Positions 2,843-30,499 of a DNA stretch of 32,774 bases are shown piece after piece. Origin of the DNA: Deltaproteobacteria bacterium (GTDB taxonomy: Bacteria > Desulfobacterota_D > UBA1144 > Nemesobacterales > N074bin48); contig SMWS01000042.1 of NCBI GenBank assembly GCA_004356685.1, forward strand, positions 1 to 32,774, in the 5' to 3' direction. The translations under genes and the position numbers were made by a program. The notes below the pieces were generated by a model. The model was given only the letters and a program-made list of their open reading frames with translations, ran no database searches and was not told where the DNA came from. How positions within the stretch are numbered: position 1 is the stretch's first letter; each line of letters begins with the position of its first letter.

Positions 2843-3796
2843 ATGAGAAGAAAATTTCCGATATTTGATGGCCACCAGGATATTGCTTTTCACCTGAGTT
2901 ATTTTAGGCGAGACTTTGTTGCGCCAGAAATTCCCTGCATGATAACCCTTCCCGGACTAAAAAAGGGTAATATAAAATTCATATTAAATACAATATTTGT
3001 TCATCCTAAATTAAGACCTGAAAAAACAGTTGAGAACGCTAATCTACAATTTCAGGTTTATGAGGACATTTATACAGAGTTTGGCTCTGAAATTATGAAA
3101 ATTGAAGACAAAAAAGACCTGGATACCGCAATTAATGATAACAAGATTGGTTTTATCACTTTGATGGAAGGCGCAGACCCAATTGAACAGCCAGATGATT
3201 TGTATAAATATTACAATAAAGGTTTAAGAGTGCTGGGGCTGGCCTGGAATAACAAAAATGAATATGCTTCGGGCCCGGCAACCAAAGATGGTTTATCCGA
3301 AAAAGGAAAGGAAATAATTCAAATTATGAATGAATTAAATATAACTCTGGACCTTTCACACTTAAATGAAAAATGTTTTTGGCAAAGTCTAGAATCTTAT
3401 AATCATACCCCACTGGCAACTCATTCAAATGTAAGGAAATTAACAGATCATCCAAGAAACCTGTACGACGAACAGTTAAAAGAAATCTCAAAGCGTGGCG
3501 GCGTAATAGGTATAGTTCTTTATAACAATTTTCTTAAAACTACTGACGACCGGCCAACTTTAGAAGATATTTATAAACATATTGATTATATGCTTAATCT
3601 TTGCGGTGAAGACCACGTAGGAATAGGGAGCGATCTGGATGGCGCTGAGATAAAAGACTTTCCAAAAGAAATAAGGACAATCGCTAATTTACAGAAAATC
3701 CCTGAATATCTATCTAAAAAAGGTTACTCTGATGATCTTGTTAAAAAAATCTCGCATGACAATTTTCTCAGAGTTATAAGATACAATCTAAATTAG
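2843..3796 (+). CDS. Membrane dipeptidase, peptidase family M19 (renal dipeptidase-like)
   Basis: Motifs FDGHQD, DLSHLNE, ATHSN and GIGSDLDG. I prefer the ATG at 2843, 1 nt after the upstream stop codon (2839..2841), over the track start at 2807. The homologous region begins at MRRKFPIFDGHQD, and 2807 would add an unmatched 12-aa extension overlapping the upstream gene. Confidence 0.8.
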   Translation: MRRKFPIFDGHQDIAFHLSYFRRDFVAPEIPCMITLPGLKKGNIKFILNTIFVHPKLRPEKTVENANLQFQVYEDIYTEFGSEIMKIEDKKDLDTAINDNKIGFITLMEGADPIEQPDDLYKYYNKGLRVLGLAWNNKNEYASGPATKDGLSEKGKEIIQIMNELNITLDLSHLNEKCFWQSLESYNHTPLATHSNVRKLTDHPRNLYDEQLKEISKRGGVIGIVLYNNFLKTTDDRPTLEDIYKHIDYMLNLCGEDHVGIGSDLDGAEIKDFPKEIRTIANLQKIPEYLSKKGYSDDLVKKISHDNFLRVIRYNLN

Positions 3797-3824
3797 AAAG
3801 CCCGAAGCACATACTCCGGGCTTT
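3797..3824 (+). terminator. Possible stem-loop terminator after the dipeptidase gene
   Basis: AAAGCCCG (3797..3804) pairs with CGGGCTTT (3817..3824) around a 12-nt loop. The trailing T-tract is short (TTT then A), so this is a weak intrinsic terminator at best. Confidence 0.35.
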
Positions 3825-3956
3825 ATAGGGGAGGATGGAAATTAATAAACCATTCATCTTTATCTCTTATATATACTTTTAGATAATGATCGATTATAAA
3901 AGATTCAAATTAGCTTTTATATTATTTCTTGAATGTTTCTAGTAAAATAACAAATC

Positions 3957-4994
3957 ATGAAAATTAAAATCGGAATCTTGGGAGCAACAGGATATACAGG
4001 GGCTGAACTGCTGAGATTATTAGTAGGTCATCCCCATGCAGAAATTAAATGGCTAACATCAGAGAAATTTGCAAATAAGAAAATTTCTGAAGTTTTCCCG
4101 ACATTAAGAAATTTCATTGATCTTGAATGTAAATCTATAAGAGAAATAAACAAATTTAAAAATGTGGACGTAGTTTTTTCTTGCTTACCGCATGGAAGCT
4201 CTATGCATTTTGCTAAATTATTTTTGGATAAAGGCACGAAGTTTATAGATTTCAGTGCCGATTTTAGGTTTACAAATTTAAGCCTATACAACAAGCTTTA
4301 TAAGTTAAATCATATAAACCCTGAATTAAATAAAAAATCAGCATACGGCCTGCCTGAATTATTCAGGAAGAAGATAAAAAAATCAGAATTGATATCAAAT
4401 CCCGGATGTTATGCGACTGCTGCAATTTTAGGTTTAGCACCTTTGATTAAAAATAATCTAATAGATGCAAAATTTATCAATATTGATGCCAAAGCAGGAC
4501 TTTCAGGAGGCGGGAGAGCCCCAGTTAGTGAAAGGCAATTTTCTGAAGCTAACGATACAATTTCTATAAATTCAATCTCAAATCACAATCAAAAACCAGA
4601 AATTGAAGAACAACTCAGTATTCTATACAAAGCTAAATCAAAATTAGTTTTCTCAACATATAATATAAATATAGACAGGGGAATACTAACAACGATTACA
4701 GCAAAGCTGAAAAACTCCATATCGAAAAGTGAATTATTAGCAAAATATAAGAATTTTTATAAAAATGAAAATTTCATCAGATTAATTGATGATGAAAAAA
4801 ACATATCTACTAAAAATGTGCGATTTACAAATTACTGCGATATTGGAGTAAACATTCAAAACAGACATATTGTTTGTGTAACTGCCTTAGATAATTTAGG
4901 CAAAGGAGCTTCGGGACAAGCTGTGCAAAATATGAATATAATATTTAATCTAGAAGAGTCCGATGGCTTACAAAATACAGGGTTATATCCGTAA
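3957..4994 (+). CDS. argC: N-acetyl-gamma-glutamyl-phosphate reductase
   Basis: 345 aa. N-terminal GILGATGYTGAELLRLL..HP, active-site PGCYATA, and C-terminal DNLGKGASGQAVQNMN signature. Confidence 0.9.
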   Translation: MKIKIGILGATGYTGAELLRLLVGHPHAEIKWLTSEKFANKKISEVFPTLRNFIDLECKSIREINKFKNVDVVFSCLPHGSSMHFAKLFLDKGTKFIDFSADFRFTNLSLYNKLYKLNHINPELNKKSAYGLPELFRKKIKKSELISNPGCYATAAILGLAPLIKNNLIDAKFINIDAKAGLSGGGRAPVSERQFSEANDTISINSISNHNQKPEIEEQLSILYKAKSKLVFSTYNINIDRGILTTITAKLKNSISKSELLAKYKNFYKNENFIRLIDDEKNISTKNVRFTNYCDIGVNIQNRHIVCVTALDNLGKGASGQAVQNMNIIFNLEESDGLQNTGLYP

Positions 4995-27342: not shown

Positions 27343-28299
27343 ATGAGTACTACTAATCCATATGTAGCTTTAAAAGAAGAGATGGATAACTTGGTGATTG
27401 GACATGAGGATGTAAAAATGTCTTTACTTCTCGGCATAATTTCCAGAGAACATGTTTATATTGAGGGCCCCCCTGGAACTGCTAAAACAATGCTTTCTGA
27501 AATAATTTCCGGTGCTGCTCAGCTGCAGTTTTTCTTCTATCAGTTGCACAGAGATACAAGGTTATCAGAACTGATTGGCGATTTAGTAATATCTAAAGAA
27601 ACCACCGATGAAGGTGAAATAATAAAGCAAAAAATCGTAAAAGGGGGAATTCTTACAGCTGAAATATGCTTATTGGACGATATTTCAAGAGCACCCGGTG
27701 AATCACTAAATGTACTTTTACGCATATTAAATGAGAGAAAATTCTTTAAAGAATCTATACCTCTTTTAACAGCCATAGCTACCAGTAACCCAACAGCCGA
27801 TGAATATTATAATGAACCTTTAGACCCTGCAAACCTGGATAGATTTATTTTACAGATAAATGCTAAAGGGCTTTCCTATGGAAGAAAATGGGATCAGGCT
27901 TCAGAAGTAATAAAGTTATATTCTAAAAATCCAGACAGGCACGAAATTCCGAAAAGAGTAACCAGAGAATTGCTGGATACTTATTATAAAAAACTTAATT
28001 CAGTTAAAATTCCAAAAGAGATACAGGATCTATTAAAGAATTTTGTAATTACATTAATTGAAAAATATGGCTTAAATGAAACTAATTCACTTATTTCTGA
28101 TAGAACCTTCTTTGTAAAATCTTTAAAGATAATCAGATCTTACGCCCTGCTCCATGACAGGAAAAGTTGTATTCCAGAAGACCTTAAAGCTCTTAGATAT
28201 ATGACTGCTTTCAGACTTCCAGAAGAAGTTTATGCCAAGATAGACGAGATAATAGAAGAAGTAATAAGTCAAAAAAAAAAACCCAAGAAGAGCAGTTAG
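27343..28299 (+). CDS. MoxR/RavA-like AAA+ ATPase; the annotated stop lies 6 codons after an A11 tract
   Basis: 318 aa. Walker A GPPGTAKT, Walker B LLDDISRA, and LNVLLRILNERKF (sensor / arginine region typical of the MoxR class). SD GGAGG at 27327..27331. Confidence 0.8.
   Translation: MSTTNPYVALKEEMDNLVIGHEDVKMSLLLGIISREHVYIEGPPGTAKTMLSEIISGAAQLQFFFYQLHRDTRLSELIGDLVISKETTDEGEIIKQKIVKGGILTAEICLLDDISRAPGESLNVLLRILNERKFFKESIPLLTAIATSNPTADEYYNEPLDPANLDRFILQINAKGLSYGRKWDQASEVIKLYSKNPDRHEIPKRVTRELLDTYYKKLNSVKIPKEIQDLLKNFVITLIEKYGLNETNSLISDRTFFVKSLKIIRSYALLHDRKSCIPEDLKALRYMTAFRLPEEVYAKIDEIIEEVISQKKKPKKSS
28271..28281 (+). repeat. A11 homopolymer at the frame junction between the AAA+ gene and the VWA reading frame
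   Basis: Counted directly: 11 consecutive A. In the ATPase frame it reads caa aaa aaa aaa ccc. One extra A, or a -1 slip, enters the downstream open frame (acc caa gaa gag ...). Confidence 0.95.
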
Positions 28300-28673
28300 A
28301 TAATTTCGATAATAATTTCGAGTCTCAGATAGAAAATGAGGCAAGCGCCGAAGAAAAAGAAAATCAGGAATTATCTTCTGATGAGGCCGAAAAGGAAACT
28401 GATGAGCAACTTCGGGAAGCTCAAAAAACTTTCTTCGAGGCTTTAAAAGAACTCAAAGATAATATTGAGCAAGATCCAGGTTTACCCCCCCCAGATCAAA
28501 AATTCCCCAGTGTCCCTGATGGAAGAGCCGTAGAGAGTGGACAAGACGAAGATAGTGATAAATTATCCCCAGAAGCAGTTTATCCGAGTAAATCAAGTGA
28601 CCCAGGAGATGAAGATGAATACTGGGCAGGCGGGAAAAGAAATATAAATAGTGCGGATAATATCAAATCAATC
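28281..28673 (+). other. Start-less coding-like extension of the VWA reading frame (acidic, proline-containing linker)
   Basis: In the frame of the 28674 ATG there is no stop back to 28194..28196 and no ATG, GTG or TTG between 28197 and 28673. From 28281 the translation is TQEEQLDNFDNNFESQIENEASAEEKENQELSSDEAEKETDEQLREAQKTFFEALKELKDNIEQDPGLPPPDQKFPSVPDGRAVESGQDEDSDKLSPEAVYPSKSSDPGDEDEYWAGGKRNINSADNIKSI, followed by MKVLEG... Confidence 0.65.
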
Positions 28674-29477
28674 ATGAAAGTTCTTGAGGGAAATTTTCAA
28701 AGAAGTATTGCCTTACAGGCCGCCCATCCCGGAGGACAGCCAAGGAAATGGAAAAGAATGACCCATTTTGATGAATTAGAGGATATAGATCCATTTGAAG
28801 CTGTATTTTGGTGTTCATATACATCGCCCAGTTTACCGAGAGTTCACAAAAGGGAAAAAGATGTAATGGGTGGAGAAATTGCTATTCTAAGAGATGTGAG
28901 CACTTCTATGATGGGAGTTTATAGTGAATGGTCATCTTCGGTAGTAAAAGGAGTAATAGAGCTGGCAAGAACAAAAAACATGAAGGTTGGATATATCGAA
29001 TTCAACCATAAATCCTTTAAGCACTTAAGAAATAATAAATTCTTTTCAAGGGACTATAATTGGATGCTTGAAAGTGCAACTGCTACTGACTGCTCCGGAA
29101 ATACAAACTACGAAGACGCATTTAAGGATGCGTTGGCCGAATTTAAAGGAAGGGGTCTTAGAAATAAACATATATTATTCATAACTGACGGGATACCAAC
29201 CTCAGGAGATTGCGAAGTAATAGAACAAAGAAAGAAGGCTAAAAAACTAGGAGTCTGCATTCATTCAATATTTATAGGATTGAAAAATTTTCCAAGCATT
29301 CTGGATAAGATTTCCACCGAAACTCAAGGAACACAGTTTATTGCTTCTAGGAAAAACGACGGGTTCATAAGAATTCAGAGAAAAGACAAAAAATTTACTT
29401 TACCTAACATCGACAAACCGCATGTAGATCCTTTTGCTCAGGCATTTGTTCTCGCGTCTGGTGGGTCTAAACATTAA
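28674..29477 (+). CDS. von Willebrand factor A (VWA) domain protein with a complete MIDAS motif. These are minimal coordinates from the first ATG; the protein is probably longer or fused upstream.
   Basis: 267 aa from the first ATG. DxSxS (DVSTSM, nt 28893..28907), a later T (NTNYEDA) and D (FITDGIP) fit MIDAS. It is adjacent to a MoxR-class ATPase, as in the RavA/ViaA, CbbQ/CbbO and NorQ/NorD pairs. Confidence 0.8.
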   Translation: MKVLEGNFQRSIALQAAHPGGQPRKWKRMTHFDELEDIDPFEAVFWCSYTSPSLPRVHKREKDVMGGEIAILRDVSTSMMGVYSEWSSSVVKGVIELARTKNMKVGYIEFNHKSFKHLRNNKFFSRDYNWMLESATATDCSGNTNYEDAFKDALAEFKGRGLRNKHILFITDGIPTSGDCEVIEQRKKAKKLGVCIHSIFIGLKNFPSILDKISTETQGTQFIASRKNDGFIRIQRKDKKFTLPNIDKPHVDPFAQAFVLASGGSKH

Positions 29478-30499
29478 TCTCGGGATTTTTTTATCTGGTA
29501 TTTATATACAGCCATTCTATGCTCGTTATAATCTTTTGAAAAATAATGGCTTCCATTTCCCATGGAAACAAAGTATAGAAATTTAGTCTCATTGGGGTTT
29601 ATAGCTGCATGCAAAGATGCCTTACCAGGATTAGATATAGGAGTAGGCGGTAGTCCTGGGATCATATAAGTATTGTATTCAGTAAAAAGCTCCATGTCTC
29701 TCTTCCTAATATTTCCATCGAAACTATCTCCCAAGCCATAAATAATTGTAGGATCACTATCGAGCTTCATTCCAATCCTAAGTCTATTGTGAAATACAGA
29801 TGAGATTTGTGCAAGTTCGCTTTTCGATCCGGTTTCTTTTTCTATAATCGAGGCAAGCTTTATAATTTCATAGTCACTGCGCTTGTTTTCGATAGGGTAT
29901 TGTGATTTTAATTCACCGAAAACTTTTTTAAACATTCCAACCATTATTCTTGTAAACTCTTCGGGTTCGATGTCTTTCCAATAGTTGTATGTTTCTGGAA
30001 ATAAAAACCCTTCAAATGAATTAACTTCATTTCCTAATAACTCATTTTTAAAATTCTGATCCTCTAACACACTCAGGAACTGGCTTTCAGGAAATAAATT
30101 ATTTTTTTCAAATATCCCGGCAATTTGCTTTACAGTTAAACCTTCTGGAATCGTAACCTTTCTTAACTTCACCTCACCTCTTAAAAGCTTATCGGTTACT
30201 TCTTTAATTGTGATGTTTTTGGAAAACTCATATTCCCCTGCCTTCAGACTGCTCTGCAGCTTGTTAAATACCACGTAGAGAATAAACAACTTGTCGTTTA
30301 ATATGACTTTGTTTTCCTGCAGCTTTTTAGAAATTTCTTTAACACTTTCGCCCTTTTTAATCTCAACTATTTTGAGCTCAGAATTAAAAACAAACTTTTG
30401 AGTATAGTAATTAAACAAATAGAACGCGGATGTAAAAACAATAGCCGACAGGATTAATAAAAAAAAAATTATTGATCGAAATCTCATATCTAAATGCAA
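29474..30499 (-). CDS. mltG: Endolytic murein transglycosylase MltG (YceG family)
   Basis: 341 aa. N-terminal TM helix, then motifs ASIIEKE, VFHNRL..GM.L.SDPT..YG and YNTY...GLPP.PI.NPG. Confidence 0.9.
   Translation of the reverse strand: MHLDMRFRSIIFFLLILSAIVFTSAFYLFNYYTQKFVFNSELKIVEIKKGESVKEISKKLQENKVILNDKLFILYVVFNKLQSSLKAGEYEFSKNITIKEVTDKLLRGEVKLRKVTIPEGLTVKQIAGIFEKNNLFPESQFLSVLEDQNFKNELLGNEVNSFEGFLFPETYNYWKDIEPEEFTRIMVGMFKKVFGELKSQYPIENKRSDYEIIKLASIIEKETGSKSELAQISSVFHNRLRIGMKLDSDPTIIYGLGDSFDGNIRKRDMELFTEYNTYMIPGLPPTPISNPGKASLHAAINPNETKFLYFVSMGNGSHYFSKDYNEHRMAVYKYQIKKSRD

Follow-up and report, generated by a model that had tools for sequence, protein, structure and literature searches.

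Among cellular genes in which slippage at a poly-A site gives two products, the short list so far includes dnaX and chlD. The chlD-type chelatase genes consist of two open reading frames (ORFs) of ~1000 nt split at A_AAA_AAR, where 10 to 63% frameshifting occurs in Escherichia coli; they have been proposed to yield small and medium subunits, and fused versions are found in other taxa (PMC3711429, PMC5009743, PMC9227772). Likewise, some dnaX genes need slippage at an A10 run to produce tau (PMC3711429). More generally, bacterial RNA polymerase slips efficiently at runs of at least nine A or T residues (PMC5009743), and A_AAA_AAA and A_AAA_AAG are classic −1 shift sites (PMC3711429, PMC4066793). 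Here, we analyzed a 32,774-nt stretch of DNA (contig SMWS01000042.1 of assembly GCA_004356685.1, deposited as a Deltaproteobacteria bacterium; referred to below as the window), in which a MoxR-type AAA+ ATPase frame meets a VWA domain frame at a run of 11 A residues. The frame arrangement is real, is fixed in the species, and is common to about 45 species. Judged from the sequences, the locus is very probably a single gene for a MoxR-type AAA+ module, an acidic linker, and a VWA domain that undergoes programmed −1 recoding at the A11 run, which would give a short and a long product.

Of the known systems, the chlD-type chelatase gene cluster resembles this locus most closely. Both systems combine an AAA+ module, an acidic or proline-rich linker, and a VWA domain over two overlapping ORFs of about 1 kb; in both, the −1 shift would fall at A_AAA_AAR immediately past the AAA+ module, other taxa have fused homologues encoded as a single ORF, and one gene is expected to supply an AAA+-only subunit as well as a longer AAA+-VWA subunit. 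Unlike chlD, the locus described here has an AAA+ module of the MoxR type, not of the ChlI/Mg_chelatase type, and has no cobN or chlH neighbor. dnaX is similar in that a single AAA+ gene encodes two proteins with a common AAA+ module, distinguished by a C-terminal extension, the site is a poly-A (lysine) stretch, stops in the alternative frames lie nearby, and both polarities (long product by default or only after slippage) occur among relatives. Its variants include −1 programmed ribosomal frameshifting (PRF) at A_AAA_AAG in E. coli, transcriptional slippage at an A9 run in Thermus thermophilus, and a Chlorobi-type two-ORF gene with an A10 run. However, dnaX encodes a clamp loader rather than a MoxR-VWA protein, and the polarity of the present gene changed repeatedly within one phylum. 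A literature search found no report on frameshifting in Dadabacteria or on frameshifting or transcriptional slippage in MoxR-VWA genes. Thus, as far as that search found, the locus is an undescribed and unannotated case of the known recoding class represented by chlD and dnaX.

The features of the locus are listed in Table 1. Across the run, the codons of the 0 frame are CAA AAA AAA AAA CCC, and A_AAA_AAA heptamers lie in phase at 28272 to 28278 and at 28275 to 28281. ORF1 reads ...VISQKKKPKKSS* through the run, and the short product has the 0-frame C terminus ...EEVISQKKKPKKSS. The −1 frame is open from 28197 to 29477 and contains no ATG, GTG, or TTG before the ATG at 28674, a stretch of 159 codons in which ATA, ATT, and ATC are the only start-like codons; 131 codons separate the run from that first start codon. 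At the base composition of the window (GC content, 34%), the chance of 159 stop-free codons is 7e-6, and that of 159 codons free of both stops and starts is 4e-9. This start-less lead is the longest across the six frames of the window, the runner-up being 74 codons. Repair of the frame within the run gives a conceptual protein of 711 amino acids (aa) (...VISQKKKTQEEQLDNF...), with the trans-frame peptide TQEEQLDNFDNNFESQIENEASAEEK spanning the junction. The initial annotation, made from the window alone, had reported the A11 run, the 159-codon start-less frame open from 28197, the junction peptide QKKKTQEEQLDNF..., and a fusion of about 711 aa, and all of these were confirmed from the sequence. 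Public annotation splits the gene into TDJ07819.1 ("ATPase") and TDJ07820.1 ("VWA protein").

Table 1. Coordinates of the features of the candidate recoded gene in the window
Feature	Position	Strand	Remark
ORF1, 0 frame: complete MoxR-type AAA+ module, 318 aa	27343..28299	+	Short product of standard decoding; from the ORF list
TAG closing the −1 frame upstream	28194..28196	+	5' limit of the possible shift region
A11 slippery run	28271..28281	+	Where the −1 shift, or the addition of one A to the mRNA, is proposed
Linker, −1 frame, fusion residues 314-444: acidic, predicted disordered, no start codon	28281..28673	+	
0-frame TAG stop, 15 nt 3' of the run	28297..28299	+	Ends the short product and bounds the shift region on its 3' side
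Conserved linker helix EAQKTFFEALKELKDNI, fusion residues 374-390	28461..28511	+	Alignment consensus EARKTFFQALKELKxNI; predicted helix 348-377
Segment with an annotation of its own, as a 267-aa "VWA protein"	28674..29477	+	Its first Met is conserved and internal to the fusion (..NIKSIMKVLEGN..)
VWA domain, fusion residues 512-667, MIDAS-like	28875..29342	+	Pfam VWA/VWA_3/VWA_2; confident fold

GTDB species representatives were scanned with the family alignment, which yielded 78 loci. More than 100 single-ORF homologues of ~640 to 710 aa cover 94 to 100% of the 711-aa fusion used as a query; since they are collinear with the conceptual fusion, the fused architecture is the norm of the family. 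When the conceptual fusion was compared with the 78 loci by tblastn, about 45 loci from Dadabacteria/Thermodesulfobacteriota had residues 1 to ~314 in one frame and residues ~311 to 703 in the −1 frame. A conserved A run, for which the initial annotation had proposed to look in orthologs, was indeed present: a run of A9 to A12 stands at the switch point in 66/66 family loci with the KKK motif, and the printed contexts of the frameshifted loci listed all contain A9 to A11 with A_AAA_AAR in phase (46/46). A −1 shift inside the run gives conceptual proteins of 702 to 713 aa at these loci, which match single-ORF homologues over their whole length, and the 0-frame stop lies 10 to 24 nt 3' of the run in 43 of the 46 (outliers at 6, 7, and 50 nt). 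In about half of the frameshifted loci, a TAA that overlaps the start of the run marks where the −1 frame opens, and the 0-frame stop follows 14 to 22 nt after the run; the permitted shift window of these loci is 22 to 31 nt and consists mostly of the run itself. In a neighbor-joining tree, the frameshifted state fills three deep clades, with amino acid identity within clades down to 63%: clade A (16 species; runs of A9 or A10), clade B (the species of the window and its sister species, L025, at 80% amino acid identity), and clade C (23 species; runs of A10 or A11). In-frame relatives are found in Entotheonella, in several Dadabacteria lineages, and in P0001, the sister of clade B, which reads CAA AAA AAA AAG in frame. 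The loci are orthologous on the basis of synteny, as 50 of the 57 loci with a neighbor hit, frameshifted and in-frame alike, have mltG and proB downstream; glyS lies upstream in the window's species and L025.

Within the window's species, the exact truncated 318-aa protein was found in 53 blocks of public assemblies, and A11 was present in 10/10 fetched loci carrying it, which came from nine independent ENA/NCBI/JGI samples. The exact 711-aa fusion was not found among ~15 billion proteins. The cluster of the ATPase at 90% identity comprises 55 distinct sequences, and the 15 members listed are 318 aa long, with one of 319 aa; their tails vary as QKKKPKKSS, QKKNPKKSS, QKKKTKKSS, and QKKKPPKKSS. 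Strains 97 to 100% identical to the window carry A11C3, A10C4, A12C2, and A11C6 alleles with a constant frame offset, and A11C3 is also present in a 1.73-Mb hifiasm contig. Altogether, A11 or an equivalent occurred in all 19 reliable loci of the species, assembled with megahit, SPAdes, or hifiasm or by JGI. A pattern scan of metagenome DNA with a variable gap over the run returned only a contig that was already known (SMVB01387416.1). No stops or frame-breaking indels downstream of the run were seen within the species.

These data bear on three alternative readings. If the assembly were in error and the run were truly A12, the locus would be a plain 711-aa ORF; homopolymers are error prone, and one contig of the species, L001 (P0037), has A12 and reads through. 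That contig was rejected as an in-frame allele, because with 1.7x coverage and 51 mismatches, mostly C>A and three of them nonsense changes, its run length is unreliable, whereas the 19 other loci keep A11 or equivalents. About 45 species share this −1 offset, and frameshifted loci come from Illumina as well as long-read assemblies. Run length alone is not the source of the pattern either, since A11 and A12 runs were assembled smoothly in the in-frame loci L022, L033, and L013. Thus, a sequencing error, which the initial annotation had kept as a trivial explanation, was refuted by the 19 loci and the recurrence across species, and we regard it as exceedingly improbable. The second reading is phase variation, in which populations would toggle the fusion ON and OFF through changes of run length in the DNA. 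Poly-A tracts are well known as contingency repeats (PMC3711429), and the composition of the A/C run differs among strains as given above; nevertheless, all of the variants have the same offset, and no in-frame allele appeared among the listed members of the 90% cluster or in the look-up of exact sequences. Moreover, the gene sits in a conserved housekeeping neighborhood (mltG and proB; glyS) and is neither a surface gene nor a restriction-modification gene. The phase-variable switch entertained in the initial annotation is therefore unsupported, the error-ridden 1.7x contig being the sole in-frame case in the species, and we consider it highly improbable. Thirdly, gene decay begins most often with a homopolymer frameshift, and the fused gene could have become a pseudogene recently; yet the shift is common to strains down to 97% nucleotide identity and to the sister species L025, both halves are under strong purifying selection, and secondary stops and indels are absent. 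Recent pseudogenization can hardly be credited.

The strength of selection was estimated from the ratio of nonsynonymous to synonymous substitution rates (dN/dS) between pairs of frameshifted species, which was 0.041 for the ATPase, 0.10 to 0.11 for the linker just past the run, and 0.045 for the VWA part. Stops in the acidic segment of orthologs, which the initial annotation had suggested as a check, were not found: the equivalent of 28281 to 28673 contains none in ~43 frameshifted loci whose repair yields a full-length protein. These comparisons indicate that the −1 frame downstream of the run is translated and is under purifying selection. Some other species have an ATG 12 to 28 codons past the run, so the lack of a nearby start depends on the species.

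The same region speaks to the possibility of two independent genes, with the ATPase ending at 28299, the VWA protein starting at the ATG at 28674 or at a noncanonical codon, and the open frame between them being a relic. NCBI and gene-caller annotation (TDJ07819.1 and TDJ07820.1) matches this reading, and MoxR ATPases usually have separate VWA partners: RavA-ViaA, CbbQ-CbbO, and NorQ-NorD likewise pair a MoxR-class ATPase with a VWA/MIDAS protein. In these pairs, the ATPase ring works with a substoichiometric VWA partner. However, they are encoded by separate genes, whereas here one fused frame would be joined by recoding. No Shine-Dalgarno (SD)-like sequence precedes the ATG at 28674, but this is not diagnostic, because SD motifs are weak before most genes throughout the window. 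The absence of stops from 28281 to 28673, a linker dN/dS of ~0.1, and blocks conserved with single-ORF homologues all argue against a relic. In the family alignment, the conserved block Y.SKS..PGDED..WIGGK.N.ESADNVKII sits upstream of the Met at 28674, itself internal and conserved, and the linker helix lies ~55 codons 5' of this ATG, the sole candidate start. Furthermore, the −1 ORF of many species opens exactly at the run, through the overlapping TAA. Two independent genes are thus very unlikely, and one gene read through a shift at the run remains the preferred reading.

The run itself is under selection at the nucleotide level, as judged from its codons. The junction KKK is encoded AAA AAA AAA in 66/66 loci, GC-rich in-frame genes included, and the junction lysine codons are AAA in 63/63 and 64/64 sequences, compared with 19 to 67% AAA in other conserved lysine columns. 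Lysine codons outside the run are AAA in about half of cases overall and in 7 to 23% in GC-rich members. In in-frame genes, slippage can only truncate the product, and the keeping of the run there suggests that the truncated product is useful. Stops lie within 0 to 15 codons of the run in both alternative frames of the in-frame genes, with the exception of one +1 frame (25 codons, in L021), and third-frame stops lie within 2 to 17 codons in the frameshifted genes. A further observation concerns the in-frame loci L012 to L034, in which the conserved (L/I)-E dipeptide of the linker, eight codons after the run, is encoded NTA GAN; read in the +1 frame, these bases give a TAG that falls in the ATPase frame, and its position is the same whether the gene is in frame or frameshifted. 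This TAG may be a conserved hidden stop.

A different arrangement is seen in SAR324/Lambdaproteobacteria. All 11 loci of this group (L032, L038, L046, L048, L050, L053, L061, L063, L064, L071, and L075) have a fused AAA+-VWA gene without an A run and, directly after it, a stand-alone AAA+ gene; for instance, the two genes occupy 2974-4989 and ~5100-6050 in L032 and 2986-4974 and 4996-6042 in L053. The stand-alone AAA+ gene ends at the equivalent of window residue ~313, that is, at the position of the run. No stand-alone AAA+ paralogue was found within the 3-kb flanks of any of the 66 run-bearing loci. From this distribution, it seems that a short subunit of its own is required, and the tandem pair of SAR324/Lambdaproteobacteria is a two-gene alternative to recoding. 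The separate chlI and chlD genes of chelatase systems parallel this pair.

The conservation of the run and the tandem genes also weigh on a reading in which the short product has no role. A one-base deletion in the poly-A run might have been fixed by drift, with slippage restoring enough full-length protein and the short protein arising as a useless by-product. Such compensated, or "savior," frameshifts have been proposed for genes of Buchnera and Blochmannia, in which an indel in an A10 to A11 run is kept between species, the gene is otherwise intact, and transcriptional slippage restores the full-length product (PMC3017870, PMC5009743). At the present site, the close pairs L055 (A11) and L013 (A12) and L066 (A10) and L022 (A11) are in keeping with easy toggling. 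In those endosymbionts, however, the phenomenon is genome-wide and dominated by drift, whereas here it affects a single gene, the shifted state being fixed in three deep clades of free-living bacteria, and no second gene in the 32.8-kb window is so disrupted. In addition, a run of at least nine A residues is kept even in GC-rich in-frame genes, where truncation would be the only outcome, and lineages that lack the run have a short ATPase gene in addition; both are signs that the short product is wanted. We therefore consider a compensated frameshift unlikely, albeit the most serious competitor to programmed recoding with two functional products.

Under programmed recoding, standard decoding would end at 28297 to 28299 and give an AAA+-only subunit of 318 aa. 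In a fraction of expression events, RNA polymerase would add one A and produce an A12 mRNA by transcriptional slippage; alternatively, the ribosome would slip −1 on an in-phase A_AAA_AAA heptamer. After the shift, translation would run through the linker and the VWA domain to 29477 and give a protein of ~711 aa. The short and long subunits would share one AAA+ ring, with their ratio set by the efficiency of slippage. By analogy with the systems described above, both products are probably used, as the short and long subunits of one such ring. The proposal of the initial annotation that a −1 slip or transcriptional slippage fuses the ATPase to the VWA part and leads to two products is supported by the fixed offset in the species, its presence in ~45 species, and the purifying selection estimated downstream.

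As for the step at which slippage would occur, every run-bearing locus has at least nine A residues, always with an in-phase A_AAA_AAA or A_AAA_AAG. We slightly favor transcriptional slippage over −1 ribosomal frameshifting, because at least nine A residues are kept even where A_AAA_AAG would do and no stimulator is evident. Efficient PRF typically involves stimulatory elements (a downstream hairpin or pseudoknot, or an upstream SD-like sequence), whereas transcriptional slippage can do without them. The chelatase sites differ in this regard, as they were described with strong downstream structure potential, which is not conserved here, and the run in the present family is never shorter than A9. 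The shift site had no match in Rfam. In the sub-clade L079 to L089, a local hairpin (CCGGATCAGATGCCTGATTCGG) occurs ~25 to 47 nt past the run, with z-scores down to −3.3; a classic PRF stimulator would lie closer to the run, and the hairpin was not recovered as a consensus structure.

Several observations count against programmed recoding with two functional products and were weighed with the above. No stable or conserved RNA structure was found downstream of the run, where fold z-scores are mostly between −1 and +1 (−0.3 in the window), RNAalifold returned 0 consensus pairs in clades A and C, and no clear SD-like stimulator was found upstream; given these results, efficient stimulated PRF is unsupported. 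The linker is nearly neutral within the species, with 7 synonymous and 16 nonsynonymous polymorphisms (26 and 18, respectively, in the VWA part), a signal too weak alone to show constraint, and for this reason dN/dS between species was used. Off-by-one runs or Ns at L065, L066, L072, and L037 point to some assembly noise at the site. Finally, a function of the short product is suggested by the codon conservation of the run in in-frame genes and by the two-gene arrangement of SAR324, and it is on these two comparisons that this part of the reading rests. Regarding individual loci, L055 (shifted) and L013 (in frame) are near identical and one A apart, as are L066 (shifted) and L022 (in frame). 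Compared with their clade relatives, L065 and L072 lack one A, and in L037 the run is followed directly by Ns. The one-A differences at L013/L055, L066/L022, L065, L072, and L037 may be real toggles or homopolymer assembly noise.

The predicted domains of the 711-aa fusion are consistent with a MoxR-type ATPase joined to a VWA domain. Pfam matches comprise bpMoxR/AAA_5/AAA_3 at residues 12 to 175 (E = 2e-20 for bpMoxR), AAA_lid_8 at 235 to 287, and VWA at 512 to 667. D518, S520, and S522 of the metal ion-dependent adhesion site (MIDAS) motif DxSxS (LRDVSTSM) are invariant in the family alignment. The nearest solved structures are MoxR 2r44 and RavA, the only two PDB entries returned by the sequence search (7e-26 for 2r44); these two also ranked on top in the fold search (Foldseek 1e-18 and TMt 0.70 for 2r44), followed by MCM chains. 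The AlphaFold model has two confident domains and an acidic, disordered linker between them, with predicted local distance difference test (pLDDT) values below 50 at residues 317 to 436. The shift site corresponds to residues 311 to 313, between the AAA+ module and the linker. The ChlD/BchD family, considered for its architecture, was ruled out by the Pfam, NCBIfam, and PDB results: the fusion had no Mg_chelatase match in Pfam, it scored 15.6 bits against TIGR02442 (cutoff, 779), and its PDB matches were those given above. Nor does the gene have a cobN or chlH neighbor.

In the window, the gene is flanked by glyQ/glyS upstream and by mltG and proB downstream. Its VWA frame and the convergent mltG/YceG ORF (29474-30499, minus strand) have stops that overlap by 4 nt, at 29474 to 29477. 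This mltG/YceG ORF is intact and has an A10 run (T10 on its coding strand) near its 5' end, at 30459 to 30468. A C8 run (PPP) at 28485 to 28492, within the linker, is the second long homopolymer of the candidate recoded gene, and one strain has C>A at 28488. The glyS gene upstream of the ATPase (L002 to L011) encodes 705 or 707 aa, depending on the strain, within the same species.

Altogether, the split annotation hides a recoding event that, on the evidence above, is very probably conserved across much of the candidate phylum Dadabacteria, and its recognition would correct the annotation of dozens of genomes. It would also add a MoxR-family case to the few cellular poly-A slippage genes with two products known from dnaX and chlD. 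The in-frame, frameshifted, and duplicated genes form a natural series for studying how AAA+ rings are assembled with a substoichiometric adaptor and how slippage efficiency is tuned, and the A9 to A11 runs, which lack a stimulatory structure, provide a convenient test case for separating transcriptional from ribosomal slippage. A broader reading, to which we give even chances, is that the A9 to A12 run acts as a family-wide stoichiometry dial. All run-bearing MoxR-linker-VWA members, in frame or shifted, would then make AAA+-only and AAA+-VWA subunits for one mixed ring, the default having been flipped repeatedly by a single A, and SAR324/Lambdaproteobacteria would have replaced the dial by gene duplication. 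If this is true, the family would join dnaX and chlD as a third, independent case of an AAA+ ring whose composition is set by recoding, and it would show that the polarity of such a gene can be toggled reversibly in evolution.

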